A stretch of 64,000 bases of DNA. Origin: a virus. This document shows positions 11,822-51,467 of the stretch, one piece after another. Under the pieces are notes generated by a model that was given only the letters and a program-made list of their open reading frames with translations, did no database searches and was not told the origin of the DNA. The position numbers and the translations under genes were made by a program. Positions within the stretch are counted from its first letter, which is position 1, and each line of letters starts with the position of its first letter. Location of the stretch: the IMG/VR virus record IMGVR_UViG_3300020469_000002, positions 10,928 through 74,927 of that record; one strand, 5' to 3'.

Positions 11822-11854
11822 TACACACTACGCCGCAGAAACCTTGGAGGTTCA

Positions 11855-14659
11855 ATGGCTACACAGTGGAAGCGTGACGAAACGAACAGCACGCTGATCA
11901 TCATTCCCACGATGGGCAACCCGTCTCTCATCTTGCCCGCAGTACAGCGGGTGGTGATGCACAGCGGGTCTGAGTCTTTTCATCTTTGCATCGTTGCGAA
12001 CCCACAGTGGGAGCATCGAGACGCAGTTGCCGCTGCCGAGCGTCAATGTCGGGTGATTGTCGAGGCGACAAACGCGCTTCGAGAAAACAAGATTCACCTG
12101 ACTTGGGAGCAGATGCCGGGACCTGCTGGATGGGTTGGCGCTGTTAATCAGGGTGTAGAGGTTGTCTCACAGCGCACAGGTCTTCCAGAGCACATCGTTG
12201 TCATGAACGACGATCTTCTGGTGACTGCTGGCTGGACTGATCGACTTCGTGCTGCGTTCGAGACTGAAAATGTCCATCTTCGAATCGAGCTTGTGACGCA
12301 TGGGCAGCGGTATCTCGAAGGAGACGGGCACAGCGCGAAGGCATACGGCAAGATCGGAATGGTTGGTCCGGTGAGCGCGAATGTCGCTGGTGCTCAGAAT
12401 CTTCAGCCCCCGTCTGCACGCGTTCCATCCGGTGCTCTTTTCGAGATTGACCCAGCGCAAGCTCTCGATGACTTCGCGGTTCAGAACGCTGATCAGAACG
12501 ATGGTGTCGTGCTTTCCGCAGACTTCTTGTCTGGCTTCTGCACCATGTATACGCGGGACTGCTTCATCGCGCTTTGCGAGGACAGCGATGACGGGCTTCT
12601 GCTCGACCCGACATACCGAATCGGTGGTTTTGACGACAACGATGTCAGTGCCCGAGCCAGCATCCTTGGCTATCGGTTGGGAATCGCGGTCGACTGCTAC
12701 GTGCATCATCTTGGACATCGCACCTTGGACAAGGTGTATCCATCGCAAGCGCGAGGATTGGCGAACGCGCCACACTTCCTGAAGAAGTGGATGCCTCGAA
12801 CCAAGCGAGATCAGCGACTCGTCGCCGTCTATCGAGTGGGCTTCTCTACATCGTGGGACATCACTATGTTCCGCACTTCACTCGAACGCACTGCCGAGCT
12901 TGTCGATGGCATCGCGGTTCTCGTGACCAACAATCCTAACGACATTCATCGTCATTCGTCGTTTCGGCTGGGCGAGCTTGGCCCTGATGAAGCAGAGCTT
13001 GTTGCGTCTACTGGACCAGACTACCCCGACAAAAAGAGTCCGATCGAAAAGTGGCTCAAAACGGTCGTGGACACAGAGAAGGTCGATCTCGCAGTAGAGT
13101 TTCGAGACTCTGAAAAGCATGAGTGGAACGAACGAGACGAGCGAAACCAAGCAATCGAGCTTGCCGAGAGTCTGAGTCCAGACTGGATGATCTCGATCGA
13201 TCATGACGAAATCGTGGAAGATCGTGTCACTCGCGAAAGTCTCGCTCGACTGATGCGTCACCCAAACCCACTCGTTCAGTCATACGACATCGGGTTTTTG
13301 ACTCACTGGGACACTCCGCGTCTTCACCGCACAGATCGACCATACGCAAACGGCTACTCGTCGAATATGCGCGGTTTTCGTATGTGGCGATTCAACGCTG
13401 CTTCTCCCGCACGAATCCAGACCGGTACTCGAAAGGGTCTGCACTGCGGGAACGTCCCGCCGTTCAGTGAAACGTCGCAGCGAGTATCGGGCATCCGTAT
13501 GCGTCACTTCGGCTACTTGCGAGGCAGTGATCGTCTGCGGAAGTTCAAACGATACGCGGCTTGGATGGACCCGAATCCAAACGATCGACTGACTGGTGGT
13601 GGATACGGGCATATTCTCTGTGAAGAGGGCATGGAGATCAACGCGTACAGCCCGCGAAACGGAATCGTCTTCTCGATGCTCATGCACTCGGGCGAGCGTT
13701 CGTGGGATCTGTACCGTCACTTGGATACTCTGTACGGTCTCGTAGACAAGATCATTCTCGTGTGGACTGACTCTGCTGAGATCCCTGATGACATTCGCAC
13801 AATCGCAGACGCGTTTGAGTGCAAGTGGGTGCATTCTCCATTCGAGGAGTCTTCGTCTCTCGCGAAGTGTCGAAACGCAGCGATTGATCTTGCTCACGAA
13901 GAGGGTGTTCAGTCTCTACGGTGGATGCTCACTTTCGATCCAGACGAGCATCTGGCTGCACCCGTCAATGATGTGATCGCACTGCGTCGAATGGCCGAAG
14001 TGACAGACTCGCTTGGTTGGATGATGCAGTTTCGCAATCACCGATCAGACGGTCAGTTCAATATGTCTGAGACTGTTCGGATGTTCACGCTCGATGATCA
14101 ACGAGTCATGCGGTATTCGGGCAGAGTTCACGAACGACTTGAAGACGCGATGAAGGAGCTTGGGTCTCGCGGGATTCACCCGAAGATTCGATACTCTCCC
14201 TTCATCATCAACCACTATGGTCTCGCGAAAAGCGACCAGCAGATGCAGGATAAGCTGGAGAGGTACACGACTCTTCTTCATGCTGCGATCAAGGAAAACC
14301 CATACGAGTGCGGTCACTGGACATCACTCGGGCTTCAATACGCAAATGACGGCGAAGCCCAGAAGTTCGAAGAGTGTATGCGGATCGCTCGCGAGTGCAG
14401 CGGAAGTGCGTATCTTCCGTGGAAAGTCAGCGGTCAACATGCGCTCCGTCAAGCACGCAAGTATTTTGAGCACTGCGTTCAATCACTTGTCCCAAGTCAT
14501 CCATACGCACGCGATCTGACTCGCATTGTCGAGTGGCTTCGCGAGAACGCTCCGGACATGCCTGTTTCTGGTCACGCTCGAACCGGTGCTGCCTCTCCAC
14601 CAAAAATCGACCTCGACGAGCTTCTGGATCGATACAACAATGGAAGTGAGCAGGAGTAG
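11855..14659 (+). CDS. Multidomain glycosyltransferase (three GT2/GT-A domains plus TPR-like tail)
   Basis: Three DxD-type motifs (VMNDD, ISIDHDE, LTFDPDE), with LSGFC/GGFDDND/VHHLGH, RHFGY and GRVHE/INHYG respectively; helical C-terminus. Confidence 0.85.
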   Translation: MATQWKRDETNSTLIIIPTMGNPSLILPAVQRVVMHSGSESFHLCIVANPQWEHRDAVAAAERQCRVIVEATNALRENKIHLTWEQMPGPAGWVGAVNQGVEVVSQRTGLPEHIVVMNDDLLVTAGWTDRLRAAFETENVHLRIELVTHGQRYLEGDGHSAKAYGKIGMVGPVSANVAGAQNLQPPSARVPSGALFEIDPAQALDDFAVQNADQNDGVVLSADFLSGFCTMYTRDCFIALCEDSDDGLLLDPTYRIGGFDDNDVSARASILGYRLGIAVDCYVHHLGHRTLDKVYPSQARGLANAPHFLKKWMPRTKRDQRLVAVYRVGFSTSWDITMFRTSLERTAELVDGIAVLVTNNPNDIHRHSSFRLGELGPDEAELVASTGPDYPDKKSPIEKWLKTVVDTEKVDLAVEFRDSEKHEWNERDERNQAIELAESLSPDWMISIDHDEIVEDRVTRESLARLMRHPNPLVQSYDIGFLTHWDTPRLHRTDRPYANGYSSNMRGFRMWRFNAASPARIQTGTRKGLHCGNVPPFSETSQRVSGIRMRHFGYLRGSDRLRKFKRYAAWMDPNPNDRLTGGGYGHILCEEGMEINAYSPRNGIVFSMLMHSGERSWDLYRHLDTLYGLVDKIILVWTDSAEIPDDIRTIADAFECKWVHSPFEESSSLAKCRNAAIDLAHEEGVQSLRWMLTFDPDEHLAAPVNDVIALRRMAEVTDSLGWMMQFRNHRSDGQFNMSETVRMFTLDDQRVMRYSGRVHERLEDAMKELGSRGIHPKIRYSPFIINHYGLAKSDQQMQDKLERYTTLLHAAIKENPYECGHWTSLGLQYANDGEAQKFEECMRIARECSGSAYLPWKVSGQHALRQARKYFEHCVQSLVPSHPYARDLTRIVEWLRENAPDMPVSGHARTGAASPPKIDLDELLDRYNNGSEQE

Positions 14660-17939: not shown

Positions 17940-18007
17940 TCCGATCCAGTCGAGACTTCACGAGTCTCGTTGGATAGAGTGTGAGAGCACTCGAACGGAG
18001 ACGGACA

Positions 18008-21000
18008 ATGGCCGATTCCACCATAGCCAAGCTGTTCGTCGAGCTTGGATTCAAGGACAAGGACTTCAAGAGGGGTCTGAAGAGCACGAAGTCCGGCTTG
18101 AAGAACATGGAGAAAGTCGGTCAACAGATCTCAGGGATCTTTGGCGGAATCGTCGTTCGCGCGTTCAAGGCTGCGACAGCTTCGATCACTGCTCTGGGCG
18201 CGGCGAGTGCTGTTGTTGGCGCGAAGTTCGAGCAGGAGATCACGACCGTTGCGGCTGTTTCTGGTGCGACCGCTGCCGATCTTGAAAGACTGACGAATAC
18301 AGCGAGAGACTTCGGTTCGACAACCACGTACTCAGCGACACAGGCTGCGACCGCTATGCAGTCACTTGCTCGCGCGGGTATGGAAACGAACGAGATCATC
18401 ACAGCTACTGGACCTGCACTGAACCTCGCTGGTGCATCCGGCGAAAGCATGTCTCTTGCTACTGAATCGCTCGCAGCGACGATGGCCCAGTTTTCACTCG
18501 ACGCATCAGAAGCAGGTCGAGTCAGTGACGTGTTCGCAGAGGCTTTGCGTTCCTCTCTCTTCAATCTCGGTTCTCTCCGAGAGGCGATGAAGTACGCAGG
18601 TACCGTTGGTGCCGGCTTCAACATGACACTGGAAGAAACAGTCGCAGCGGTCGCTCAGTTCCGAGATCTTGGTCTCGAAGGCAGCATGGCTGGTACGCAG
18701 TTGCGAATGGCGATGTCTTCCGCGGCACGAGGAACGGAACGAAGCAAAGAGGCACTGAAGAAGCTCGGGCTGGTACAGGCACAGATCAACCCGACAATGA
18801 ACACATTTTCAGAGATTCTAAAGACCGTCGGTGACGCCGGAATCCAAGCCGACGATGCGATCGCAATCTTCGGATCACGCGCTGGCTCGAACATGGCACT
18901 GCTCGCAAAGCAGTTCGCAGCAGGCGGCGAGAAGTACAACGAGTTGCTTTCTAAGTTGGAGACATCAACGGGCACTGCACAGCAGATGTTCGAGGAAATG
19001 ACGGATACAGTGAGAGGTCAGTTCACGATCGCAAGAAGCGCGATGGAAGAGCTATTGATCTCCCTCTTCGACTCGTACAAAGGCCCACTCAAAGACGCTC
19101 TCAGTGCGGTTGCCGAGGTGATTCAAGACATCGCAACCGAGTTCAAACGATCAAGCGATCAAATCGCAGGTACAGCCGAAAGTGTTTTCGGCAGCTTCGC
19201 GAGAGACATTCGAGCGAACAGCGAAGAAATCGCGAAGCAGTTTGTCTCCATCATTGAGTTTGTGACCACTCTGATCGGAATGTTCGCGAGTCTTCGACCG
19301 ATCGCGAAAGAGCTTTTCCTGATCATGACTGCGGTGTTTGCAGTCGGTCAAATCATCGTGTTCATGGCTGTTCTGGGACAGGCAGTTCTTGGCTTTCATT
19401 TGCTCAAAGCCGCAATAATCTCAACCGCAGCGACACTCACAGCGACAACAGGTGGGCTTTACGCGCTTGTGGTTGCGGTTGGAATTCTAATCACAACCGT
19501 CGGGGTGCTGACTGTCAAATACTCTTCTGCTGGTGCGGCGGCAGAGAGGCTGTCGAAAGCACAGGCGGAAATAGACAAGCAAAGAGCGAAAGAAGACGCT
19601 CTTGCGATGGAGGGTGCACAAAACGCTCAGACCATCACCGCAGAGCTAATGCGGCAGAAAGAGCTGGAGTTGAAGTCTCAGAATACTCTTACTGAGTCGT
19701 ACTCTCGACAGTTGAAAATGCTCCAGAAGCTCAGTGCAGAGCAGCTTCGACAGAAAGAGCTTTCTGGTGAAGTCGTTCGAGTCAATCAAGATGGGCAGGA
19801 GGTCTTCAAGACTACCGCGATGCTCGTCGAAGAGGCTTCGAACGCGTCTCTCGGAAGCGCAGACGCGGCAGAACAGCTTTCCGGAGCGATTCGGAATCTG
19901 CAACAGAGTTTCGCAGACAACTCAGCAGAGCTGGAAGCGGGTCACGCAGAGATTGACAAGTACGAAGAGGTGTTGGAGGCAACAGGCGGATCAGTCAAAC
20001 TTGCCGGCGTAGAGTTGAAGTCATTTGGTGGTTCAGTCGAGAAAGCCACCAAGCAGATGGCGTTTCTCGGTGAGAAAAATCAGGTTCTCACAAAGACCTT
20101 TGAAGGGCTCGAAAAGAACATCAAGGAGACCCAACATTCTTTGGCGAGAGGAGAGGTTTCAAAGGCGTTGTTCGTCGAGGGAGAGAATGCAGAAGAGGCA
20201 GCGAAAAAGCTGAAGGAGTACCAAAAGGCACTGGATGCTGCTCGAAAGGCTCGGAAAGATCTCGTAGATCAGATGTCGGAGGACTTCACTGCTACCTTCG
20301 AAACGGAAACACAAGCTCGTAGACGCGCACTGGACGAGCAGGTTGCTCTAATCGAGGAGACTTTCGCAAAAGAGATCGCTCTGGTCTCGAAAAACAAGGC
20401 TCTTGTTGAGACACTGGAGCGCCTGAAGCAAGACACGATTCTTCAAGCGAGAATCGTTGCCGGGCACGAGCAGCGAGACGAGACGCAATCTCAGGTAGAC
20501 CAGCTTCTCGATATTCGCAGACATGAAGGTCTGTCTGAAAGCATGATGCGGGCAAAGAACCGCCAGTCCCAACTTGAAGAAATGAAAGCCGCGTTCGTGA
20601 TTGAAGCTGGACTTCATCAAGAGGGTTCTGCTGAAAGACAGGCGGTTCTGGTTCGCGAGCAAGAGGCTCTTTCTGTCCTTCGAAACCAGTTTCGCGCAGA
20701 AGATCTACGAATCGCGTCTGCGACAGCGAAAGAGACAGCGGAAGTAGTCGCAGGGATCGAGAAGCAGGTCACGCTCGAAAACGGTCACGAGTTGACCCGA
20801 ATCAACATGGAGCTTGCAGACGCGAAGAAGTCGATTTCGAAAGGGTCAGCGGACGAGCTTGCTCGTGTAGACGAGATTTATGCTGATCGAGCGAAGAAGG
20901 TTGGTCAGCGAATCAAGGAAGATGCGAAGGCGATTACGGACTCGCGATACGCAGAGCAGCTTGCGTTGACGAGAGAGAAGGAAGAAGCACTCGCGAAGAT

Positions 21001-30484: not shown

Positions 30485-31564
30485 GTGCCTCTTCCAACAT
30501 TGACATGGCATCAACGATTTCTCGGAAGCGTCAGCGATGGGAATGACCCAGTGACCGTTTTGACTGCGCTTCGCGACTATCTCGCGACAAGCGTCTCCCC
30601 TTCGTTCAAGTGGACGGTCACTGCTGATGGTGTCTCGAACACTGAGTCGGGAGGCTCAGTTGCTGCTCCGTATCTGGAGCTTACGAGTGCAGCGAACGTC
30701 GGTGCCAACCCGATCAAGATCCTTATTGCAGGATCAGACTCTTCGAGCTTCCCGACGAACGACAGCTTCTACGGCGGAAACTCCGGTATCGGGGACTACA
30801 AGCCGTCTCTGAGTCGTCAGAACTCGATCGTCATCGGGATTGCTCCTGACGGCGGCACACTCAACGGTCCTCACACTCAAGCGAACCCATACGGAAGTGC
30901 TCGTTGGTCAGGGTACGTGAAGCTCCACGAGCCTTTGACGGCAACACAAATCGACAATCTTTGGGTTGTGGATAGCGCAGAGGTGATCGCTATTCTAACC
31001 CAAGGGTCGGACAACTTGATTCGCGGAGTAATCGCTGGTGCTTGCATCGCTCCGCTCAGTGACAATGCAGGTGAAACGCAGCACGGTGGCGTCGGTAGAA
31101 CATACGGAATCGTGACGATTCACGCAGGGCTCGGGTTCAGAAACTACTGGCGAAAGAACCCGCCAACAGCGAACTTCCTTTCTCCGCAAAGCAACAACGG
31201 GAACAACACCGATGGAAAGGGGGGTCAGGGAATCAGCTTGTGCTGGGACCCCGATGGTGGCGGGTTGGCACACTTCGCGTACTACCACGTTGTCCCGACT
31301 CAAACGAATACAGGTACAACCATCTTCCCCGGTGCTCTTCTCGATAGTGTCGGGAACTACGCAACGATCCCCATTCCTCTCGTGAATCGAAGCACTACCA
31401 CGTATCAGCAGACTCGAATGATCGGCGTGATGCGGCAAGTGAAGTATGCGGCAACCAGTCGATGTCGCGCGGTCTTTCAAGATTCTACGGGTAACGATGT
31501 AGGGTTCGTAGTATCTACGACTCTTACCGCTGATGGTGAGGCGTTTGCGTTCACGAACAGCTAA
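30485..31564 (+). CDS. Putative tail/receptor-binding protein
   Basis: AGGAG RBS; S/T/G/N-rich; last gene of the structural operon. Confidence 0.55.
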   Translation: MPLPTLTWHQRFLGSVSDGNDPVTVLTALRDYLATSVSPSFKWTVTADGVSNTESGGSVAAPYLELTSAANVGANPIKILIAGSDSSSFPTNDSFYGGNSGIGDYKPSLSRQNSIVIGIAPDGGTLNGPHTQANPYGSARWSGYVKLHEPLTATQIDNLWVVDSAEVIAILTQGSDNLIRGVIAGACIAPLSDNAGETQHGGVGRTYGIVTIHAGLGFRNYWRKNPPTANFLSPQSNNGNNTDGKGGQGISLCWDPDGGGLAHFAYYHVVPTQTNTGTTIFPGALLDSVGNYATIPIPLVNRSTTTYQQTRMIGVMRQVKYAATSRCRAVFQDSTGNDVGFVVSTTLTADGEAFAFTNS

Positions 31565-32322
31565 TCGCTGGCTCTGCTTCGAGAATCAAACACTGCCGAC
31601 ATCGCACTTCCAAGTATTCCGGTCAACACGAGCAGCACTCTCTCGACCATGGCGATCCCCTCGATGTCGCTTGTCCCGGTGACCCACTGACCGACAACGA
31701 GCGCACCGAGCAGACACACGAGCAACACGGTTCCGCCGTAGATTTGTCTGAGAAGAGTGATCTGACCCGAGAGACGCCTTTGTCTAAGCAGACCGTTCTC
31801 TGCCGCTCTGCGAGCGTTTTCCGCTTCATCGCGAAGCTGCTCTGCCTCCCCTCTGAGTCGATCGGCTTCGCTTAGGGCGTCTTCGCCTTCACGTACTGCG
31901 GAGGCAAGTGCCTCTTCTCGGGCGTAGTATTCGGTTCGATCCATAAAGAGAGCGACGAAGTACCGCTCTCCTGAGTGCTCAACGGGCGCGACGTTCGCAA
32001 GTACAGGCACGAGTGCGCCGTCTCGTCTCTTCGCGTCGAGTCTTCGCCATGTGCCCATCACTGAAGAACGACTGTGCTTTCTTGTGGACTTGATGTGGCG
32101 CTCTACGATCTCCTGATGTTTGCTTGCGATCTCTTCGGACATAAGCTCGCGAACATTCATTTGGTTCATGAGCGTGCCGCTGGAATATCCAAACAATATC
32201 GCGGCGCTGTTGTTCGCGAAAAGAACGAATATCTCGCCGCTCTCGTCATCTGGAAAGGTCCCGACTACGAATCCTATTTGTAGCCGAGACCCAACCTGTT
32301 CGAGTGTTTCGAGGACATTCAT
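31561..32322 (-). CDS. PAS domain - coiled coil - two C-terminal TM helices
   Basis: FANNSAAILFGYS...NVRELM...KRRDG..VPV.ANV...YFVALFMDRTE is a PAS/PAC pattern; acidic coiled coil; two hydrophobic segments. Start uncertain (32322 or upstream). Confidence 0.8.
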   Translation of the reverse strand: MNVLETLEQVGSRLQIGFVVGTFPDDESGEIFVLFANNSAAILFGYSSGTLMNQMNVRELMSEEIASKHQEIVERHIKSTRKHSRSSVMGTWRRLDAKRRDGALVPVLANVAPVEHSGERYFVALFMDRTEYYAREEALASAVREGEDALSEADRLRGEAEQLRDEAENARRAAENGLLRQRRLSGQITLLRQIYGGTVLLVCLLGALVVGQWVTGTSDIEGIAMVERVLLVLTGILGSAMSAVFDSRSRASD

Positions 32323-32345
32323 GCGCGGATCATACCGCGCCACGT

Positions 32346-34334
32346 TCAGTGCCGCGAGCCCATGGGCGTCTGCTCCCATGTGTCTGCGTAAACGCAAGCC
32401 TCTGGATCGTAGAACAGAACGACTCTCGCCCCCTGCAATCCGAACTCACTTCTGCACTTGTCCACGTGAACAGCAGTTGCGGGGTGTTCAACGCCTCTTC
32501 CCGGCAAGAGTCGTTCGAGCACGATTCCGACATGAGCATCCTGTCTGATCGCGCTTGCTCCTTTGAGGTCTGAGATTCGCACTCTGCGCTGTTGAGAGAT
32601 TGAGAGGTTGTTCGGGTGACAAATCAGAATGACCGAGATCTCCAGTTGCACGGCGAGCATCGCGAGCTTTCGAACTGCGTTTTCGATTCCTCTTCTTTCG
32701 TCTTCCGCCCCATCTACGAGAAAGCCCAAGTGATCGATGATCACCCATCGAGCATCGCGTCTGCGAACAGCGTAGGAGATCAAGCGAAGAAGCTCCTCGA
32801 ACTCCAAGTGACCGTAGTGATCGAGCAAATAGATCGGGAGAGATCCAAGTCGAGCAAGTGCGGTTCGTCGCTGATTCTCAGTGAAGGCTGTGAAGTCTCC
32901 ACCCATTTCGGCTCGCAACAGCTTTTGGACCTGCCCGATGGGTCTTTGCTCAAACGATGTCATCATTCCAGGGATGCCTCTTCTTCCTTGTTCGAGACCA
33001 ACCCAGTTTGTGAATGAAGTCTTCCCTGCTGCTGTGTCGCCTGTCACCACGATTAGCCCGGGTCTGAGACCACCGAGTGCAGCATCGAGACCCATGCTTC
33101 CAAACGTGAGCCCTCGAAGACTGCCTGGATTCTGAACAAGATCTTCCAGTTCGTCCGCAAACGCATCGACACGAACCAGCCCAGCTTCGAGCAGCGGTTG
33201 GGCTGCATCGAGAACATCGCGCATCGTCTGTTCGGACACTCCATTTCTCAAACAGTCCGCAGCATCGTTGTGCGGGAGTCGAGCGCGAGAGCATCGATCT
33301 CGACCCAGCTTGTCTGCAACCGACTTTGCTCCCTTGTCTCCAGCAGCATCGTCGTCGTAGGCAAGAATGAAGTGTCTGTATGGTTCGAGCGTGTCGAGCC
33401 ATTCGTCGGCCCATGTTCCCGCCCCCGCTGTTCCCGAGACAAGATGCTCTCTGAATCCAAGCTGCCAAAGTGCCATCGCGTCAAGCTCGCCCTCGGTGAT
33501 AATCACGTCCTTGTCGTGATCTTCAGTGAGAGTTGCGATTCCGAAGAGAGTCGTAGGTCGACCCGGTGCTCGTCGGTATGTCTTCTTCACTTCCCCCTGA
33601 TCACATCTTCTGCAACCAGCTCCATCGCAGTGAAGGCATTTTCCAGGCACGCTGCGAAAGCGCATGTTCACAGGCTTTTCATGCTTGTCGAGAACGGGAA
33701 TCGAAACGTACTGCTCGACTGTCTTCCCATTTCTGTCTCGAACGATGAGTGCCCCAACCTTCCAAGCCTTCAGCGTTCGATCTTCAAACCCACGACTGAG
33801 CAAGTATTCGCGCACGGCTTGCCCATCGTCTGACCACAGATTGTTGATGCACTCGTCCGTCAACGAGTCAGACCACTTGAATGGCCCATTGTAGTTCTTC
33901 GCGTCTTCGACCTTCGGCTTGGTTTGTTCTCGTTTTCTGCGAGTGTTCGAGACAGGCAGAATCTTGGAGGCGATGTCGTCCCGTGTGCAGAGCCCGAGAT
34001 CAGCAGCGCGTTTCCGAACATCATCAAACTGATCTCGATTCAGTGTCCGCAAAGGAGTGCTGTGCACGTCATACGAGATCAGATCAACACCGTCTCCCGC
34101 GCGATCGCACACAAAGCACTTCCATCCCTGTCCGTCAGGTCTCGCACCGATGGGACCTCGCGAGTCTGAGCTTCCACGCTTCTCAGCGTTGCAGCCGGGA
34201 CAAGGTGAGATCGATCGCGATCTCTTCATCGTCATCCCGAGAGCTTGGGCCACCTCTCGAACGTCATGCTCTTTGATTTGCTCAATCCATCTACGAATCA
34301 TTGGAAGAGCCTTCGTCTGTTGAGTGTGGTTCAT
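32346..34334 (-). CDS. Primase-helicase (Zn finger, TOPRIM, SF4 helicase; T7 gp4/Twinkle-like)
   Basis: CPGC..CFVC; IITEGELDAMAL; LAYDDDAAGDKG; GDTAAGKTS; VIIDHL; LKGASAIRQDA; KCRSEFG. Alternative start at 34301. Confidence 0.92.
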   Translation of the reverse strand: MNHTQQTKALPMIRRWIEQIKEHDVREVAQALGMTMKRSRSISPCPGCNAEKRGSSDSRGPIGARPDGQGWKCFVCDRAGDGVDLISYDVHSTPLRTLNRDQFDDVRKRAADLGLCTRDDIASKILPVSNTRRKREQTKPKVEDAKNYNGPFKWSDSLTDECINNLWSDDGQAVREYLLSRGFEDRTLKAWKVGALIVRDRNGKTVEQYVSIPVLDKHEKPVNMRFRSVPGKCLHCDGAGCRRCDQGEVKKTYRRAPGRPTTLFGIATLTEDHDKDVIITEGELDAMALWQLGFREHLVSGTAGAGTWADEWLDTLEPYRHFILAYDDDAAGDKGAKSVADKLGRDRCSRARLPHNDAADCLRNGVSEQTMRDVLDAAQPLLEAGLVRVDAFADELEDLVQNPGSLRGLTFGSMGLDAALGGLRPGLIVVTGDTAAGKTSFTNWVGLEQGRRGIPGMMTSFEQRPIGQVQKLLRAEMGGDFTAFTENQRRTALARLGSLPIYLLDHYGHLEFEELLRLISYAVRRRDARWVIIDHLGFLVDGAEDERRGIENAVRKLAMLAVQLEISVILICHPNNLSISQQRRVRISDLKGASAIRQDAHVGIVLERLLPGRGVEHPATAVHVDKCRSEFGLQGARVVLFYDPEACVYADTWEQTPMGSRH

Positions 34335-35340
34335 TCAGCATGTAGAGGTTGTTTCCGTCAGAGCTTCGCTGAGCCAAGTAGACATCGAACCCAGCTCCGC
34401 GAAGCTCAGACAGTCGAGCCCCGTACCTTCGACCGATTTTCGCAAGCTCGCTCGTGGTCACACCCTTTTCGCCTCTCTCTCGAAAGAGAGCCAGAATCTC
34501 GCAGCACTGAGCAGACAATCGTTCAGCACCATCTGGTGATGTCGAGACTGTGCCAATAGGCCCTCGTCTTCGATACGCAGCAAGCGGACCAAGAGTTGTA
34601 CCAGACTCACTCTTCACGTCGCCCTGTTTTGCTGTGAACGCTCGCATGGCTTCGATCCGACCCGCGATTCGAGTGATTCGAAGAAGATTGTCGAGCCCGA
34701 GATACGTTCTCTGACTCGGGTTCTCGCCTCTCCAGTATCGTGGACCTGCATCGTCGCTTGTGTATGCGTACTCGATGAAATCGCACAGACTGTCCACGTC
34801 TGACTCTCGAAGAGCGGGCTCGATCATTCGCTTCGCGCCTGCACCAAGCCTGCATCGGGATGGTTCACGTTGATGCTTTTTCCAAGAATCGAATACACGC
34901 TCGACATCTCGCGAGACGATTCCTGACGCTTTCGATCGCTTGCTGCCAAACGCGCGAGGCGACGCTCTACGCGCTTCGGCAGTAGTTGCGCGTCTACTGA
35001 GCAGCAGAGACAGCGTAGCACGCACCAAATCGCGCGAGGGGGGCGGCAAAGCGTATGAAGCGCAAGCAAGAGCGCCTCTCGTCGGCTGCTCACCCGATCG
35101 AGTCACCCATGCGTATCTGTTTCCGTCTGGTGCAAGGTAGATCGCGATGTGACCCGCATCGACCAGCTTTTCCATGGCTGCATCTTGAAAGTGAAGAAAC
35201 CGAGAGTCGAGCAGAACGATTCCGTCTCGATCTGTGTGTGAGTAGAGCCGCAGAAGCTCCAGCTTCTCTCTGTGTTCCATCTTCTGAATCGACTGATCGT
35301 GCCAGAACGATGCTCGAAGAACCAAGTCTCTGGTAGTCAT
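34291..35340 (-). CDS. Putative replication initiator-like protein with C-terminal wHTH
   Basis: GAGGACACA-ATG start; VFDSWK...YWRGEN...YLGLDNLLR resembles phage initiator C-terminal domains; RYGARLSELRGAG wHTH. Confidence 0.55.
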   Translation of the reverse strand: MTTRDLVLRASFWHDQSIQKMEHREKLELLRLYSHTDRDGIVLLDSRFLHFQDAAMEKLVDAGHIAIYLAPDGNRYAWVTRSGEQPTRGALACASYALPPPSRDLVRATLSLLLSRRATTAEARRASPRAFGSKRSKASGIVSRDVERVFDSWKKHQREPSRCRLGAGAKRMIEPALRESDVDSLCDFIEYAYTSDDAGPRYWRGENPSQRTYLGLDNLLRITRIAGRIEAMRAFTAKQGDVKSESGTTLGPLAAYRRRGPIGTVSTSPDGAERLSAQCCEILALFRERGEKGVTTSELAKIGRRYGARLSELRGAGFDVYLAQRSSDGNNLYMLNEPHSTDEGSSNDS

Positions 35341-35425
35341 TGTGTCCTCTTGTTGATGTGGTCCGAACGAAAAGCGCGCACGACGAAATCGCCGCACGCG
35401 CTGAAGGTCCTTGCAGGCGTGCAGA

Positions 35426-35968
35426 TTAGAACGGGATGTCAGACCCGCCCACCGCCGAGTAGCTACCGCCACCGCTTGCAGGAGCAGCACTCTTCTTCTT
35501 CGCTCCTTCTGCGTAGTCTTCGAGCGCGACCACCAGTTCTTCCATCTGCTTCGTGATCTCGCCCTTGTAGGGATCGATCTGACCCTTCGCAAGCTGCGGG
35601 CGCTCTGCGTTCTTGTTGTTCACCCACGTCGAGACGCCGCACTGCACGGGACGGGAGGTCAGAATGTCCCGAGTCCGCTCCTGATCGCTTGCGTCCCACG
35701 ACTCGTTGTGACCAACAGCACGAGCGAATCGAGACAGCTTCCATGCAGCGCCAGCAGTCAGGTAGAACCGCTCGTACATGCGAGCCCCAGCCTGTTCGCC
35801 TTGAACACAGCAGAACAGCACTTCGATCACGGTGTCTCCGCGCTTGCTCTGATTGTAGTTCAGATCCGCAGCCCAGCAGACATGATTGCCGGCGGTGAGC
35901 CAAGGCGGTGCGCTCACTCCAGAGCCGTTGGTAGAAGAGTCATCTTGCGGGTTGATGATGAATGACAT
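35426..35968 (-). CDS. Single-stranded DNA-binding protein (DUF669-like)
   Basis: Acidic SDIPF C-terminus; adjacent to a Sak4-like ATPase. Confidence 0.75.
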   Translation of the reverse strand: MSFIINPQDDSSTNGSGVSAPPWLTAGNHVCWAADLNYNQSKRGDTVIEVLFCCVQGEQAGARMYERFYLTAGAAWKLSRFARAVGHNESWDASDQERTRDILTSRPVQCGVSTWVNNKNAERPQLAKGQIDPYKGEITKQMEELVVALEDYAEGAKKKSAAPASGGGSYSAVGGSDIPF

Positions 35969-36027
35969 CGAGTGTCCTCACTTTGCGCATTTGCGCGGTT
36001 GTTGCGGCAAAGCCGCGATTGAATGTT

Positions 36028-36888
36028 TCAAGCCAGGGTTGCGCCGGTTGTACGACGACGAGAGCGACGACGCTTCTTTGCGCCACCCGTCTCTTTCGGA
36101 TCAGCATCGCTGACGCCCGCTTCGACCACAGGCGCGTCGTTGCTCATGATCTTTTTGACCCAGTTGCTCATGTTCGGATCTTCCACAGCATCAAGCTGCG
36201 GGAGAGACTTCGTGAGATAGTTCGAAGCCCCGCGCAACAGAACACGGTGCGACAAAACCTGCGAGCCATCTTCGTTTTCCTCACTGCGACGAAAGACGTA
36301 CCCGACGACGTTGAAGTACCCAGCGACCTCGTTCGGCAGCTTCTTGCCCTGAAACGATGGGACAACGTAGCGAGTCCCACTGTCGTCAGTCTCGGTGTCC
36401 GACAGACAGATCGCGACGACATGAAACGGCAGGTCGCGAATGGTGCGAACCAGCTTTCGCATACGATCGGTCAGGGTAGACCAGTCTTCGAGAGTCCACT
36501 TGACCTCTCCGTTCGGACCAGCACGCTTGCTCGACATGATCTCGTCTCGCAGCATCCGTTGAAGCTCGGTGAGAGAGTCGATCACAACAGTCTTGACTTC
36601 CGCGTTCGCGAGCGTTCCGTCGAGTGCAGCGGTGAAGAACTCTCGAACAATCTGCATCGAAGAGACGTTCCGATTCTGCGAAGTGCTCACGACATCGACA
36701 ACGATGGCATCGGGATTCGACGCTCGAATCGAGAGCAGCCCGTTCGGCTCCGTGAGCAAGAAGCACGGTCGAGGCATCTTCGAAGCAGCGGTTGTCTTAC
36801 CGGCACCACTGTCGCCGTGCAGCAGTGCGCGAAGCAGAATCGTGTCCTCTGCTCGCTCGCGAAGAGGTGAAAGATTCAGAAGGGACAT
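36028..36888 (-). CDS. Sak4/AAA_24-type recombination ATPase
   Basis: LLHGDSGAGKTT, TEPNG, TVVIDSLTELQ, GYFNVVGY. Confidence 0.85.
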   Translation of the reverse strand: MSLLNLSPLRERAEDTILLRALLHGDSGAGKTTAASKMPRPCFLLTEPNGLLSIRASNPDAIVVDVVSTSQNRNVSSMQIVREFFTAALDGTLANAEVKTVVIDSLTELQRMLRDEIMSSKRAGPNGEVKWTLEDWSTLTDRMRKLVRTIRDLPFHVVAICLSDTETDDSGTRYVVPSFQGKKLPNEVAGYFNVVGYVFRRSEENEDGSQVLSHRVLLRGASNYLTKSLPQLDAVEDPNMSNWVKKIMSNDAPVVEAGVSDADPKETGGAKKRRRSRRRTTGATLA

Positions 36889-43576: not shown

Positions 43577-44058
43577 TGTTCCATTCCTTCGGCTCGCTCT
43601 GCGAGTCGAGCCACACGTCGCCGCACAGAAAACGGCGCACAGTTCAAACGGTCGCGAATCTCTCGCTCAGTCCAGCCTTCGACCCGAGCGCGTACTGCAT
43701 CGCGCTCGTCCTTGGTCGCAAGCTCCAAAACTCGTTGTGCTTCCACACCTGCTTCGATCTTCTTCTGAGAAGCGTTGCTGGGGTGCTCGTTGTCCAAATA
43801 CTCGGTCTCCGTCATTCTTCGACGACGTTGACGAAGAAGTGTGGTCGCAACAGCCCTGCACTGCCATGAAGCCCAGGTTGCCGCGTTGCTTCTCGACTCG
43901 TCGAACCTGCTGTGACACTCGACCAGTCGAACCACGAGGGACTGACGAACATCATCAACGTCCAGACGTTTTGATCGAGCCCAGTGAGCGGCGGTCCGCT
44001 CGACGATGTTGATCCTTGCGAGCCAGTAGACCCACGCTTCAGCGTTGCTCTCGCTCAT
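43573..44058 (-). CDS. Small sigma70-family (ECF-like) sigma factor
   Basis: Region 2-like DDVRQ...RFDESRSNAATW; region 4-like ERDAVRARVEGWTEREIRDRLN...VRRRV. Confidence 0.75.
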   Translation of the reverse strand: MSESNAEAWVYWLARINIVERTAAHWARSKRLDVDDVRQSLVVRLVECHSRFDESRSNAATWASWQCRAVATTLLRQRRRRMTETEYLDNEHPSNASQKKIEAGVEAQRVLELATKDERDAVRARVEGWTEREIRDRLNCAPFSVRRRVARLAERAEGMEQ

Positions 44059-44663
44059 CCGTCAATCTCCTTGTTCCAGTCGAACGCGACCTTGTGAACC
44101 AGATCTGGGTTTTCGTGAGGGCTCTTTCTGTACTCGTCGGTTCCGTCGTATTCGTGAGAACAGATGTTCAAGACCCAGGACTCTGTGGACCCCAGTGCTT
44201 TCCAGCCGTGTGCGACTCCAGGCGGCACACAAACAACTCGCGGGTTTCGCTGACTGTCGAGGACGAGTCTCGTAGCTTTGCCCGTTTGCAGATTGCACAG
44301 GCCCAGCAAGATGCGCCCTCGCAGCACGACGAAGCGGTCCGTCTGCTTTGAGTGAAGATGCCAGCCCTTGATCACTCCAGGCGCAGTCGTAGAAATGTAC
44401 GCTTGCCCAAACGTGGCTGCCATCTTGCCCATGAACGGGGTCAGAGCTTCGAGTGTCGTGAAAGATTCCTCAGCCCAGGACGCTCGATACAACTCTACGA
44501 GCGACCCGCGCTCGTCAAGATGCCAGCGAAGGGAGAAGGAGTAGTGCGTCTCGTCCCACGTCTCGTGTGGTTTCGGGATGTTGATTGGCTCCGTGAAGTG
44601 CTGCGAGTATCCATTCGCAAGCGCACGGCGCACAACAGATTCAGGTGGTTCATTCTCACTCAT
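44055..44663 (-). CDS. rmlC: dTDP-4-dehydrorhamnose 3,5-epimerase
   Basis: DERGSLVE, QAYIS..APGVIKGWHLH..QTD, VPPGVAHG. Confidence 0.88.
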   Translation of the reverse strand: MSENEPPESVVRRALANGYSQHFTEPINIPKPHETWDETHYSFSLRWHLDERGSLVELYRASWAEESFTTLEALTPFMGKMAATFGQAYISTTAPGVIKGWHLHSKQTDRFVVLRGRILLGLCNLQTGKATRLVLDSQRNPRVVCVPPGVAHGWKALGSTESWVLNICSHEYDGTDEYRKSPHENPDLVHKVAFDWNKEIDG

Positions 44664-45052
44664 TTTGTGTCCTCCTTTTGGATCGGTACAAGTTCGAGTG
44701 GGGGCGCGTACCCATGCACGCGAATCCACTCCTGACGCAAAGCGCCGTAGACTGCGCCCGAGACTGGTGCCCGAGACGCGTTTAGAACTCGCCACAGCGC
44801 GCCTACTGCGCTGCGACGCGTTGATCGAGTCGAGACAAGCGCAGACGCGTAGAACGCGCGCAGGCGAGCAGATAGCGCGTGCCATCGACGTGCAAAGAGA
44901 CAAGCGCGATCGACATCTTGACAAGTCATTCCATCATTTTCGTGAAGTGCGAGAACGATCGTCTCGATTGTAGATCCCACGAACTCCACGTCTCGGAGAG
45001 AGTGAAGAACCGCAAGCGCGTGCAAGAGTCGCACGCGCGTGTCCGTTTTCAT
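44660..45052 (-). CDS. Hypothetical protein
   Basis: ATGA coupling to rmlC; fills the gap after the VWA gene. Confidence 0.5.
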   Translation of the reverse strand: MKTDTRVRLLHALAVLHSLRDVEFVGSTIETIVLALHENDGMTCQDVDRACLFARRWHALSARLRAFYASALVSTRSTRRSAVGALWRVLNASRAPVSGAVYGALRQEWIRVHGYAPPLELVPIQKEDTK

Positions 45053-45062
45053 TTTCACGAAC

Positions 45063-46481
45063 TCAGGCGAGGGCACTGGCAACCTCTTTGTCGCTCGCAG
45101 TGTCCACATCGACAATCTCGTGAGCGAGCGAGCGAACAGCAGCAGACAGGGACCCGCCGCCAACCGTCAGTGCGTAGAGTCGCATCCCATTCTCGCGTGA
45201 TTCATCGAGTCGAGCAGACACCCCGGTGGGGACGGTCGCGTACCCGTCAGTGATCAGCACGAGGTCGGCCCGCTCTTGCTCGATTCCATGCTCGTGATCG
45301 AGTGCGTGCTTCAGTGCAGGTCCAAAGTCTGTTCCGCCGCCAAGTCGAGAGCGAGCGATCGACAAGATCATCTCCGCGCATCCCCCGGGAAGATCGCTCG
45401 TCCCGTCTGCTTTCAGCGTGTGTGACCATCGAACGCGAGTGTCGAATCCGATGACAGTGCAGGCGCGACCTTCTCGCTGCGCCATTCCAAGCACCGCGAT
45501 AGCGCACGCACTCGCGTATTGTTGACGGGTCATTCCGTCGCGAGCTTCGATCCCCATGCTGCCCGATTCATCGACACACACAACGACTGGCCCGCGACCC
45601 TGCGGCTCAGAGCCGGCCATCCGATACTGACGCATCTGCCCGCTTGCGAATCGAGCCATCGCGATTGCTTGCAGTGCGCGATTCGGAGACTTCAGCAGGG
45701 CAAGCTCGCTGGGAAGGGCGCGAGTGATGTTCCGCCCAACCTCGACGCCGATGATCTTGCTTCTCGCAGAAGTGCTGTCCATCTTGCGGTCTGCACTTGC
45801 GAGACGACGAAGACGACCGGCAAGCTCCAGCACCTTCTTCAGCCCTTCGTTCGAGCCCAGCATCGCAGCCAGCTCCAGTCTCGACGTGTCTTCTGCATCG
45901 TACTGAGCAGACTTGGTGCCCGTAGACGGTGCGAGAGTCTGAAGTGCCTCCGTCAACGATTCGACTTCACGAGCAGCGTCGTCCGACTCGACCCGCATGA
46001 TTGCTCGCGCCATGTCGCCCGCAGTCGCACTCGAATCGTCTCCCTTCTCCGCTGCTTCGAGCTTCATGTCTGCAACCATCGGCGCGATCTTCGAAAGCAT
46101 CCGAGCAGCAGCGACCGCAGCCATGTCTGCATCGTCTCGCGTCGTCGCGAGAAGTCGCGAGTCGTATCCGATAGCGTCGTGAATCATGTCCACGAACTCG
46201 GTGTCGGGAGCAGGGAAGTCAAGCTGCTCCGTCTCGCCCGAAAACATCATCGAGAAAACCTCGCACGCGATTCCGTCCGCGAGCGCTCGAACTCGGGCAG
46301 ACGAACCGCGCTCAGTCTCGTGCTGCTTGACCGCTGCGACTGCGAGCCCCTTCTCGACCGCCTTCACAGCGTCGCGAAGATCTGCGAGTCGAGCAGAGCG
46401 AATGGTGTACATGGCGTCCGACCAAGCACTGACTCTTCGGGTCAGTTGAGGTCGATTTCCGACTGTGAACTGGTAGGTCAT
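45063..46481 (-). CDS. VWA domain protein (ViaA-like)
   Basis: GPVVVCVDESGSM MIDAS, GGGTDF, DLVLITDG, ALPSELALL. Confidence 0.88.
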   Translation of the reverse strand: MTYQFTVGNRPQLTRRVSAWSDAMYTIRSARLADLRDAVKAVEKGLAVAAVKQHETERGSSARVRALADGIACEVFSMMFSGETEQLDFPAPDTEFVDMIHDAIGYDSRLLATTRDDADMAAVAAARMLSKIAPMVADMKLEAAEKGDDSSATAGDMARAIMRVESDDAAREVESLTEALQTLAPSTGTKSAQYDAEDTSRLELAAMLGSNEGLKKVLELAGRLRRLASADRKMDSTSARSKIIGVEVGRNITRALPSELALLKSPNRALQAIAMARFASGQMRQYRMAGSEPQGRGPVVVCVDESGSMGIEARDGMTRQQYASACAIAVLGMAQREGRACTVIGFDTRVRWSHTLKADGTSDLPGGCAEMILSIARSRLGGGTDFGPALKHALDHEHGIEQERADLVLITDGYATVPTGVSARLDESRENGMRLYALTVGGGSLSAAVRSLAHEIVDVDTASDKEVASALA

Positions 46482-46531
46482 AGTGTCCTCACAAGCGGCG
46501 ATAACGAAGCGCGATCGCTTCTCGCCTCTCA

Positions 46532-46560
46532 GTTATACAAGAGCGCGAATCCTAACGCAA
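46532..46560 (-). promoter_or_regulatory. Early promoter with AGAAGCGATCGC leader
   Basis: TTGCGT-N17-TATAAC. Confidence 0.7.
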
Positions 46561-46607
46561 GCGATTTTATACTCCTGCGTTAAGATTCTTCTCGCGCGAT
46601 CGTCCAG

Positions 46608-47804
46608 TCAGATTCGAAGGTCGATGTCGTTCATCGCCTTTCCGACTTCCTTCCTTTGAGCGTTCAGCTTGTCGATGACTTGCTTGACCGAGGGGTCGTC
46701 GAGATCGAGACTCGGGTTGGCTTCAATCTCTCGGATTGCTTGCTTGACCTTGATATTGAAAGCGCGACGAGCCTTCCGCTTGGGGCGACGAACATCATCG
46801 ACCTCATCCTTTCCAAACATGTCGAGCTTGTTTCGCTGAACCAACACTGCGTCGAGCAGCACTCGGGCTTCCAGCAAAGCAGAGTCAACGATAGTCGCGA
46901 TCGTCTTCCAAACCGTTGCTCGCTGCTCGTGGTGATCCCACACGCTGTCTGCGAGAATGAAGAGATCCTTGACAGTGGCGACTGCTCGCCCATCGAGGGC
47001 TGCGACTGCTTGAACCAGACGCATCTGAGCCATGTGACGACGATCACTGTAGACGACACCCTCGTCACCCAGCTTGCTTCGCACGTCAACGAGTGCGGTC
47101 AGAACATTGTCGGGGACATGAACCATCTTGCACGCGTCTTGAATCAGATCGCAGTCTCCGTCCATCAGTCGCTCAGTGAACTTGACCCCACCGTCGCGAG
47201 CGATTCGAAGGAGCGCCATGTTCTCGTTGCGAGTCTCGACATAGGGAGTCCAGTAGCGAAGCAAGAATCGATCGTACAATGCAGCGAGCGCGAGGTCGCC
47301 TTGCGGGTAGACGTTCGCAGCACCCACGACCATCTTCAGCGGGACATTGAGTCGCTGAGTGCCCTGCTTCATGCGACGCTCGTTGAGAATGGTGTTGAGG
47401 GTGACCAACATTTCCGCAGTCGCGTTGAAGATCTCGTCGAGGAATCCAAAGTGAGCAGTCGGCAGGTAGCCATCGACGTTGCGCTCGTAGACTCCAGTGA
47501 GCAGCTTCGCAGGGTTGTACGGCCCGAACACTTCGTCGGGGTTCGAGTAGGAGCCCAGCAGCGTCTCGAAGTATTCGCTCGATTCGACATCGAGACCGAT
47601 TGCCCGAGCGAACTCGGTGGCCATGAGCGACTTGGCAGTGCCGGGAACGCCAAGCAGCAGGGTGTGACAGTCTGCGAGGAGACTGATGCACAGTCCGTTG
47701 ACCTCGCGATCACGACCGACCAAGTTGGTCGCCATGTCATCGCGAACGGCGCGAAGTCGTCTCAGTGCTTCGGCTTGTGAGGGGCTGAAGGTCGGGGTGG
47801 TCAT
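46608..47804 (-). CDS. MoxR-family AAA+ ATPase (RavA-like)
   Basis: LLGVPGTAKS, EVFGP, GYLPTA, FLDEIF, ILNER, ALYDRFLLR, SDRR. Confidence 0.92.
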   Translation of the reverse strand: MTTPTFSPSQAEALRRLRAVRDDMATNLVGRDREVNGLCISLLADCHTLLLGVPGTAKSLMATEFARAIGLDVESSEYFETLLGSYSNPDEVFGPYNPAKLLTGVYERNVDGYLPTAHFGFLDEIFNATAEMLVTLNTILNERRMKQGTQRLNVPLKMVVGAANVYPQGDLALAALYDRFLLRYWTPYVETRNENMALLRIARDGGVKFTERLMDGDCDLIQDACKMVHVPDNVLTALVDVRSKLGDEGVVYSDRRHMAQMRLVQAVAALDGRAVATVKDLFILADSVWDHHEQRATVWKTIATIVDSALLEARVLLDAVLVQRNKLDMFGKDEVDDVRRPKRKARRAFNIKVKQAIREIEANPSLDLDDPSVKQVIDKLNAQRKEVGKAMNDIDLRI

Positions 47805-47868
47805 TGTCGTGTCCTCGATACTCAGGGTCGGTCGTGCGTTGGCGATGCAAGTCATCGATCGCCTTTCT

Positions 47869-47897
47869 GTTATACATTCGAGATAACCAGTAATCAA
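47869..47897 (-). promoter_or_regulatory. Early promoter
   Basis: TTGATT-N17-TATAAC with TG extension. Confidence 0.75.
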
Positions 47898-50109: not shown

Positions 50110-50501
50110 TGTTCTGGAGCGTCGCTTTCAGTCGTTACGCACGAGGACTGAAGAGCAGCGAGCATCGCGTCTTCCACTTTTCGACACTCGGGACGTTGAG
50201 CACTGGACTGCCCGTACTGCAAGCATGTCGCCCAAGCGCACATTGGCGAGTCCGGACTGCCGCCCGAATCTTTCAAGCACTGAATGGGGATTGCAGCGAG
50301 CGTAGCGCGAAGCTCGGCATCGAGGACGACTGGCTGAGTGGCAGCAGTCAGGATCTCAGTTTGTCCGTCTACGATCAGATCGAGAGTCTGGTTCTGCTGT
50401 GCAAGAACTCTCTCCGTGTCATTCGATTTGAGCCCCCACCCAATGCCGAAACCTGCTCCTGCTGCTGCGAGAAGCCCTACAACCAGTAGTGTTGCCGCCA
50501 T
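50106..50501 (-). CDS. Membrane-anchored Cys-rich protein in the lysis cassette
   Basis: N-terminal TM segment; several Cys; directly downstream of the holin. Confidence 0.6.
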   Translation of the reverse strand: MAATLLVVGLLAAAGAGFGIGWGLKSNDTERVLAQQNQTLDLIVDGQTEILTAATQPVVLDAELRATLAAIPIQCLKDSGGSPDSPMCAWATCLQYGQSSAQRPECRKVEDAMLAALQSSCVTTESDAPEQ

Positions 50502-50505
50502 TCCT

Positions 50506-50709: not shown

Positions 50710-50711
50710 CA

Positions 50712-51317: not shown

Positions 51318-51467
51318 CAAACTTACTCACTTTTGAGAATGATTGAGCCAGAACGCTCTGCGCTCGCGCTGAAATACGCACAGGGCGCAATAAATACCGA
51401 GCAGCACGGACATCGACTCTCGACTGCATGAGAAGAACGGCACACTGCTTCCGTCGATTGTCGTCTT

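Follow-up and report, generated by a model that had tools for sequence, protein, structure and literature searches.

A virus-confined family of heme-type PAS proteins with a membrane hairpin as putative output and a possible role in lysis

Introduction

What would a phage do with a PAS domain resembling those of the oxygen sensors FixL and DosP, if the protein that carries it ends shortly after two transmembrane (TM) helices and has no enzyme attached? The question is raised by the gene at 31561-32322, on the minus strand, of a 64,000-nucleotide stretch of viral DNA (positions 10,928 to 74,927 of the IMG/VR record IMGVR_UViG_3300020469_000002), the whole of which we call the window. An original prediction, made from the letters alone, described its product as a FixL-like PAS sensor with a long coiled coil, two TM helices and no kinase or cyclase. 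It was proposed there that the protein could gate a membrane event such as lysis timing, or poison a host kinase by forming heterodimers with it, and that the gene might have its own leaderless transcript.

We find that the gene is a member of a genuine family, strongly conserved and found only in viruses, whose architecture is new: a heme-type PAS domain leads through a phase-locked coiled coil into a two-TM effector hairpin. The sensor is well supported, and its output function is one that we infer: the protein may be an oxygen- or redox-gated membrane effector that modulates lysis, a tentative reading to which we give slightly less than an even chance. To our knowledge, the heme-PAS gas sensors described so far are cellular proteins that regulate enzymes or transcription factors, and we know of no gas sensor described in a phage; our search of the literature likewise found no publication on phage heme-PAS membrane proteins. 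The timing of phage lysis does respond to other cues, namely superinfection (T4 lysis inhibition) and membrane energisation.

A gene family confined to viruses

The source of the window is a single contig of 74,927 bp with a guanine-cytosine (GC) content of 55%, which we assign to a tailed phage because it carries genes for a portal, a primase/helicase, helicases, a PD-(D/E)XK nuclease and a ParB-methylase, together with an endolysin-like gene. The PAS-hairpin gene is the final gene of a minus-strand replication block and begins 23 nt past the TGA of the primase/helicase gene (32346-34334). A plus-strand block converges on it, and the last open reading frame (ORF) of that block, which has no family match, ends at 31564, leaving an overlap of 4 nt. 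The start codon adopted here, the ATG at 32322, agrees with the homologs, which begin M-N/K/R-V-x-E-T-L, while public gene calls start at the ATG at 32379, giving a protein of 272 aa that overlaps the upstream gene. At least three studies contain near-identical DNA in public runs that are labelled marine metagenome. Additionally, contigs from RNA libraries of four runs (one marine sample, one study) cover 31863-32322, i.e., the PAS-coding part, at 100% identity; the cover of these libraries is patchy throughout, with uninterpretable gaps at 32340-32607 and 31670-31803, and carry-over of DNA is possible.

Relatives were found in 79 database clusters, 27 viral loci and 80 metagenome loci, and every member of the family lies on a contig of viral or metagenomic origin. 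The 140 distinct full-length sequences are 233-265 aa long, have conserved ends and share 39-59% identity with the query. Two scans of 185,579 prokaryotic species genomes, one with the full profile and one with the hairpin profile, returned no cellular relative, and tblastn searches with the long and the short forms found none among the isolated phages of INPHARED (50,697 deposited phage genomes). No close longer relative was found either, the sole longer match being a multi-PAS kinase that is 27% identical (E 1e-3). The loci that carry the PAS-hairpin gene range from 32 to 71% GC, and the GC content of the gene follows that of its flanks over 36-72% (r = 0.97, slope 0.98), which indicates that it has long resided in phages of very different hosts.

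Gene contexts were compared across the related viral and metagenome loci (those with L numbers), not the database homologs P0003-P0116. No conserved partner gene emerged from this comparison, as 221 neighbours fall in 151 clusters and their Pfam tally is heterogeneous. Not all long forms have the same sensor: three divergent ones (P0098, P0100 and P0080) keep the hairpin and are devoid of the His/Trp-Arg heme signature described below, so the sensor domain can lose or change its cofactor while the module stays.

A PAS domain of the FixL/DosP heme type

The two motifs quoted in the original prediction, ELMSEEIASKHQEIVERH (residues 59-76) and VMG..RRLDAKRRDG (residues 88-102 of the 253-aa protein), lie within a domain that Pfam recognises as PAS (PF00989, 32.1 bits against a cut-off of 22.6) and PAS_9 (PF13426, 29.9 against 27), with 1.7e-12 for TIGR00229. 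The AlphaFold2 model of the protein, with a mean predicted local distance difference test score (pLDDT) of 89.6, consists of a PAS fold (residues 1-128), a single continuous helix (130-215) and a second helix (220-251). The pLDDT is about 95 across the PAS fold, which matches many PAS structures with Z scores of 12-17.6.

Among these structures, the closest are those that bind heme. When a profile made from 28 full-length homologs was run against all PDB sequences, the top 14 matches were all heme-PAS domains of FixL, DosP or FG214, with E-values of 6.5e-12 for RmFixL, about 1e-10 for BjFixL, 2e-8 to 1e-7 for EcDOS/DosP and 2e-6 for FG214. Flavin-binding PAS domains (LOV) reached only 1e-3 in the same search. 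Similarly, the single protein matched the FixL model of NCBIfam with 8e-11 on the heme-PAS segment, and that of DosP with 2e-6. In the comparison of folds (Foldseek, VIA-align), the best match was RmFixL (1D06; Z 17.6, root mean square deviation 1.7 Å over 113 residues, 25% identity), followed by BjFixL, FG214, EcDOS and then other PAS domains. The likeness to FixL that had been proposed from the letters is thus borne out, with FixL ranking first in both sequence and fold.

The residues that ligate the heme and contact its ligand in FixL and DosP are also present. His69, aligned with the proximal ligand of FixL (Table 1), is likewise the equivalent of DosP His77 on the F-alpha helix. Arg93, on G-beta, aligns with the oxygen-contacting arginine of FixL and DosP (in the latter Arg97, numbered as in the established literature) and is nine residues away from the conserved D-G, a spacing equal to that in both proteins. 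The tryptophan preceding it, Trp92, is a feature particular to the phage family. Among the 140 distinct full-length homologs, the conserved residue is found in 137 sequences at His69, 140 at Trp92, 139 at Arg93, 134 at Tyr76, 137 at Met61, 137 at Val73 and 139 at Val111. In the distal pocket, the equivalents of Bj Ile215 and Ile238 (Ile88 and Val111) are conserved, and the position of Leu236 is variable. The window protein itself keeps His69, Trp92 and Arg93. Judging from sequence and model together, the domain probably binds heme, since its best sequence and fold matches are FixL and DosP and since the proximal histidine and distal arginine are conserved throughout the family.

A heptad-quantised linker leading to a conserved membrane hairpin

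The length of the coiled-coil linker, counted between R129, where the PAS domain ends, and Q187, where the membrane module starts, is not continuous in the family. It is 43 residues in 25 sequences, 50 in 88, 57 in 18, 64 in four and 71 in one, i.e., 136 of the 140 full-length homologs fall in steps of seven, and the other four have linkers of 54, 68 or 75 residues, which correspond to a heptad class plus four. By comparison, the distance from Q187 to W213 is 25 in every sequence. According to Moglich and co-workers, heptad-quantised linkers are reportedly a signature of coiled-coil signalling from PAS domains to effectors in sensor kinases. In the phage family, this quantisation implies that the sensor would be rigidly coupled to the hairpin and it is the strongest internal evidence that the hairpin is a regulated output and not a passive anchor.

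As originally described, the protein has no kinase or cyclase domain detectable with Pfam and NCBIfam profiles; for instance, it scores only 41 bits with the FixL equivalog, whose cut-off is 850. Instead, two hydrophobic segments (about 195-215 and 222-245) follow the coiled coil, and the chain stops eight residues past the second of them, with the tail D-S-R-S-R-A-S-D. Charges are basic before TM1, acidic in the loop and basic again in the tail, a distribution that predicts an N-in/C-in topology, with both the PAS domain and the coiled coil on the cytoplasmic side. TM2 has two stripes of small residues (T234/G238/A242 and G235/S239/S243). Conservation rises toward this end of the protein: among the 140 homologs, it averages 0.67 in the PAS domain, 0.56 in the coiled coil and 0.82 over residues 183-250, and reaches 0.91 in TM2. 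The two-TM hairpin is, consequently, the best-conserved part of the protein, and it is also an independent module, as described in the following section.

The hairpin as a stand-alone module beside endolysins

An exhaustive HMMER search of 1.84 billion representatives with a 68-residue profile of the hairpin retrieved 38 proteins of two kinds, namely long forms of about 200-254 aa that carry the PAS domain, and short proteins (100-175 aa) made of an N-terminal coiled coil and the hairpin; no other known domain was found on any of the 38. Some of the short proteins (P0102, P0103, P0105, P0106, P0109 and P0110) form a distant stand-alone clade with the N-terminal motif G-K/R-S-D-H-E-V/I-I/V-x-L-L-E before the coiled coil.

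Relatives of the TM segments do occur in lysis modules, where the original prediction had suggested looking for them: the stand-alone hairpin lies next to an endolysin in 13 of 14 loci. In 12 loci, belonging to one GC-rich phage lineage, the series consists of an endolysin, a glycine-rich holin-like ORF of 81 aa with two TM helices, a one-TM coiled-coil protein and, in the last position, the module; the endolysin of this series (phrog_9589) has PG_binding and a sub-threshold CHAP match. In locus L106, the module directly precedes the endolysin. Long forms may also be found in such surroundings. For instance, the one in locus L013 directly follows a VanY-type endolysin. Five long-form loci of high GC have a homolog of window 50106-50582 as their convergent downstream gene; in the window, 50106-50582 lies beside the endolysin-like and holin-like genes. 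Support for the gating of a membrane event by the sensor therefore comes from three observations, namely the heptad-quantised linker, the high conservation of the hairpin and its stand-alone occurrence in lysis cassettes.

Several observations weigh against a role in lysis or against the sensor that would control it. In the window, a separate candidate cassette (50106-51320, minus strand) lies about 18 kb from the PAS-hairpin gene. The adjacency of the short form to endolysins comes largely from one phage lineage, whose endolysins are 53-67% identical, and there is no endolysin nearby in locus L105. Genes for replication, nucleases and nucleotide metabolism surround the long form in the window and at most of its other loci; wall enzymes account for only two (SLT and VanY) of 149 neighbour representatives, among which helicases, methylases, ThyX, QueC and nucleases dominate. 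What the adjacency shows is association, not mechanism. Additionally, neither the long nor the short form of the hairpin matches any holin or other family in Pfam, PHROGs or NCBIfam. The ESM Atlas returned no match for residues 135-253 and, for the short form, only unnamed viral clusters, the nearest named entries (DUF6450, 0.79, and GTA_holin_3TM, 0.78) being at chance level. The traits shared with class II holins (two TM helices, N-in/C-in topology and a charged C-terminal tail) are seen by prediction only. Finally, the window protein departs from the family at three conserved positions of the PAS domain (P62S, Y76H and D113P).

Proposed mechanism

In the mechanism that we propose, the protein would form a parallel homodimer with its sensor facing the cytoplasm, and its own membrane hairpin would be its only output. 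The PAS heme would bind or release oxygen (or NO/CO), or change its redox state, and the coiled coil would pass this signal to the TM1/TM2 hairpins, as in PAS-histidine kinases, altering their packing or oligomeric state in the inner membrane. The hairpin might then modulate the membrane step of lysis, either as a small permeabilising channel that dissipates the proton motive force and triggers the holin of the phage, or as an antiholin-like modulator of that holin. In either case, lysis timing would track the respiratory state of the host. Beyond the resemblance of the domain to FixL and the phase-locking of the linker, every step is one that we infer.

Two additional considerations shape this proposal. 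Early or middle expression with the replication genes and the presence of a separate holin-like gene suggest that, in the phage of the window, the protein would be an accessory regulator rather than the primary holin. In addition, the hairpin is near-invariant in phages whose genomes, and thus whose holins, are unrelated, which favours self-assembly or an action on a universal property of the membrane and makes a specific antiholin-holin contact less likely. A more specific version would be that the hairpin is a self-assembling, ligand-gated viral channel, opened or closed by the heme-PAS domain according to oxygen (or NO/CO/redox), with the resulting change in membrane energisation triggering or vetoing the holin; we regard this version as somewhat unlikely. 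It has been described that two-TM and one-TM lysis regulators co-occur in cassettes and may also be encoded at other sites of the genome, that lysis is triggered by the loss of membrane energisation and that energy poisons bring it on prematurely (PMC13056207; bioRxiv 10.64898/2026.08.27.747656; PMC7182436).

Alternative explanations

The same architecture could serve a membrane effector that senses oxygen or redox state and has nothing to do with lysis. Such a protein would, for example, bind a universally conserved inner-membrane machine of the host (the respiratory chain, ATP synthase, Sec/YidC or FtsH) or act in superinfection exclusion, and would be expressed in early or mid-infection, adapting the takeover of the host to the oxygen supply. 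The position of the gene as the last of a replication operon and, elsewhere, among helicases, methylases, ThyX, QueC, glutaredoxin and nucleases agrees with it, as does the holin-like gene that the window already has at another site, and a hairpin that is near-invariant across phages of 32-71% GC would fit a conserved host target. We nevertheless consider it unlikely, given that the stand-alone module sits inside lysis cassettes in nearly all of its loci, that the host target cannot be named and that the absence of relatives from every cellular genome scanned gives no hint of mimicry of a host protein. A different objection concerns the sensor, as the PAS domain could bind another small ligand, or act only as a cap for dimerisation or regulation, its likeness to FixL reflecting common ancestry. 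PAS domains readily change cofactors, and the divergent long forms mentioned above have neither the histidine nor the Trp-Arg pair. Moreover, 135 of the 140 homologs have an FG loop that exceeds that of FixL by 2-8 residues (by four in the query), Arg206 and His214, which contact the heme propionates in FixL, are not conserved in the phage family, and the query has His for the family's Tyr76 and Ser for Pro62. However, the near-invariant residues are exactly those that define heme ligation and sensing in FixL and DosP, and the best sequence and fold matches are all heme-PAS domains, well ahead of flavin and other PAS domains, so a PAS domain without heme seems unlikely to us.

The remaining explanations take the missing output domain as their starting point. 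If the protein were a decoy, forming heterodimers with FixL-type sensor kinases of the host and poisoning them, as had been suggested, its PAS domain with an N-cap helix and its coiled coil would be suitable tools, as kinases dimerise through these elements. Three observations argue against it: the protein is only about 25% identical to the PAS domain of FixL and no host genome among those scanned has a close relative; the family is spread over phages of very different GC content and, therefore, of different hosts; and selection has been strongest on the membrane hairpin instead of the PAS domain. We consequently hold the decoy to be very improbable and the claim has not stood. That the gene is the remnant of a host sensor gene truncated in recent times, or an ORF without function, has nothing in its favour except the missing output domain itself. 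The many full-length homologs with conserved ends, the GC content fully ameliorated to that of each phage and the RNA-library contigs that carry the gene all contradict it. Family-wide conservation and the lack of cellular relatives in the scans refute a truncated host kinase, and the lack of cellular, isolated-phage and close longer relatives excludes it, leaving this explanation a negligible probability. An oxygen- or redox-gated membrane effector that modulates lysis is the reading that we tentatively favour.

The upstream region and the question of a leaderless transcript

It had been noted that TATGAT lies 6 nt before the ATG at 32322, and an independent leaderless transcript was suggested from this observation. 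The position of the hexamer (32334-32329) is exact, whereas the transcript finds little support. TATGAT occurs eight times in the window against 9.8 copies expected, i.e., not above chance, and no sigma-70-like promoter or -35/-10 pair was found in 31000-36500. Nor is the hexamer a family trait: among 57 distinct upstream regions of homologs, a Shine-Dalgarno (SD)-like motif is present in 36 and a -10-like hexamer in one. In the spacer of the window, GCGCGG (32335-32340) and CCGCGC (32323-32328) may pair in a hairpin of 6 bp with TATGAT in its loop, and the folding z-score of this hairpin (-1.4) is not significant. Of the RNA-library contigs, one has its end exactly on the A of the ATG (32322) and another at 32317; that the former end represents the 5′ end of a transcript is at most a faint hint.

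In three high-GC loci (L014, L055 and L088), a common element, CCGCGA.ACGCC..GGTGATAGGTT.AGC.CGGGG, stands directly before the ATG of the PAS gene, and no SD motif is present.

Features of the window and side observations

The features of the gene and of the candidate lysis cassette are listed in Table 1. The endolysin-like gene of this cassette is supported by PHROGs only, having no match in Pfam or PDB, and its relatives in crAss-like/Bacteroides phages are annotated as hypothetical, so the cassette stays a candidate.

Table 1. Coordinates, in the window, of the PAS-hairpin gene, its parts and the candidate lysis cassette.
Feature	Position	Strand	Basis or remarks
Coding sequence, 253 aa + stop	31561..32322	-	PAS, coiled coil, two-TM hairpin; ORF translation
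PAS domain, FixL/DosP heme-binding type (residues 1-130)	31933..32322	-	Pfam, PDB profile search, NCBIfam, VIA-align
His69 codon (CAT)	32116..32118	-	HMMER-aligned to the FixL proximal heme ligand (Bj His200 / Rm His194)
Trp92-Arg93 codons	32044..32049	-	Arg93 HMMER-aligned to the oxygen-contacting Arg of FixL (Bj Arg220) and DosP (Arg97)
Coiled-coil linker (residues 131-186)	31765..31932	-	Within the continuous helix of the model; 57 residues from R129 to Q187
Conserved membrane module (residues 187-250)	31573..31764	-	Conservation; stands alone in other phages
TM1 (about 195-215)	31678-31740	-	Followed by a short acidic outer loop
TM2 (about 222-245)	31588-31659	-	Near-invariant motif LLVLTGILGSAM..VFD.R, then a short basic tail
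23-nt spacer after the primase/helicase TGA (32346-32348)	32323..32345	-	No SD motif
Endolysin-like gene, 202 aa	50712-51320	-	phrog_3000/phrog_33083 (6e-18)
Uncalled one-TM ORF, 67 aa, holin-like	50506-50709	-	GGAGG SD; sub-threshold Phage_holin_1, E 0.026; between the endolysin-like gene and 50106-50582
One-TM periplasmic Cys-rich protein, spanin-like in appearance	50106-about 50500	-	Candidate cassette

Other genes of the window may be mentioned in their own right. On the plus strand, 53235-55007 encodes a protein of 590 aa that joins ParB_N to an N6/N4 DNA methylase. Another ParB-like protein comes next (55011-55709), and homologs are found near the hairpin gene in loci L018 and L020. In locus L019, the stand-alone hairpin gene (9878-10285) is immediately followed by a non-coding stretch of about 470 bp (10286-10753), and a ParB-like gene (11665-12666) begins about 0.9 kb further downstream. 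The non-coding stretch contains about 9-10 copies of a unit of about 31 nt (CGATCAAAGTTGCGTGAC/GCA..) organised in super-repeats of 73 and 115 nt, and is a candidate parS, iteron or origin array.

On the minus strand of the window, there are several genes of auxiliary type, namely 44055-44924 and 49360-50109 (dTDP-4-dehydrorhamnose epimerase-like and RmlD/epimerase-like) and a MoxR/CobS-like ATPase (phrog_19600) with its partner (phrog_24053) at 45063-47897. Finally, the plus-strand block that holds the portal gene also includes 17981-22735, which encodes a protein of 1584 aa whose hydrophobic segments, about 11 in number, form two clusters (residues 420-503 and 1160-1405); this product may be an ejection or tape-measure-like protein.

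Significance

The family described here combines a sensor with a membrane hairpin as its likely output, is confined to viruses and occurs in phages of marine waters whose hosts differ widely. If the link to lysis is true, the oxygen or redox state would directly set the latent period and the burst in environmental phages, which would be relevant to hypoxic and oxygen-minimum waters, and the protein would represent a compact gas-switchable membrane actuator for synthetic biology. If, additionally, the hairpin acts as a channel, it would constitute a portable, host-independent "oxygen clock" for lysis, common to marine phages that are unrelated to each other, and the first case of a PAS sensor that acts through a membrane hairpin instead of an enzyme or a DNA-binding domain. 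As the linker is heptad-quantised, the signalling hypothesis is directly testable by mutagenesis of the linker.

Comparison with known systems

Among phage proteins, a PAS sensor that links a life-cycle decision to a chemical cue is also found in vibriophage VP882, whose VqmA-Phage is a PAS-HTH (helix-turn-helix) receptor of the DPO autoinducer (Silpe and Bassler 2019, cited in PMC10468136). Unlike the phage hairpin protein, VqmA-Phage is soluble and acts by binding DNA, with no heme-type pocket or membrane module.

The T4 antiholins RI and RIII, lambda S107, P1 LydB, the mycobacteriophage proteins LysF1a/LysF1b and D29 LysA2a/b are likewise small phage membrane proteins that set the time of lysis according to a cue, and two-TM proteins of N-in/C-in topology and their one-TM partners form cassettes resembling the one around the stand-alone module. 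However, these regulators have no sequence similarity to the phage hairpin protein, none of them has a gas or redox sensor domain, and the function considered here is deduced by reasoning from context.

The aerotaxis receptor Aer consists of a PAS domain, an F1 linker, a membrane hairpin, a HAMP domain and an MCP domain, and binds flavin adenine dinucleotide (FAD). Compared by description, Aer likewise begins with a PAS domain in the cytoplasm, which a helical linker connects to a two-TM hairpin whose outer loop is very short, but the phage protein ends after TM2, without HAMP or MCP domains, its PAS domain is of the heme and not of the flavin type, and its hairpin would be the output instead of an anchor.

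Regarding heme-PAS proteins, the domain of the one-component regulator FG214 (PDB 10jx; Z 15.6, sequence E 2e-6) is a weaker match than FixL, and it acts through a DNA-binding domain instead of a membrane hairpin. DosP (EcDOS) of E. coli is the second-best heme-PAS match (2e-8, Z 14-15) and has its arginine at equal spacing to the D-G, whereas the phage protein lacks the GGDEF/EAL domains and the phage family has Ser or Thr at the position of the distal Met95 of DosP. The closest known system is FixL, from Sinorhizobium meliloti (1D06) and Bradyrhizobium japonicum (1DP6/1XJ4/8JS5), with which the phage protein has in common the LMP...H...Y helix, the proximal histidine, the distal arginine and the C-terminal coiled-coil exit helix. 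In contrast to FixL, the phage-only family has a longer FG loop, an invariant tryptophan before the arginine and no Arg206/His214, and, in place of a histidine kinase and a FixJ partner, its output would be the two-TM hairpin at the C-terminus.

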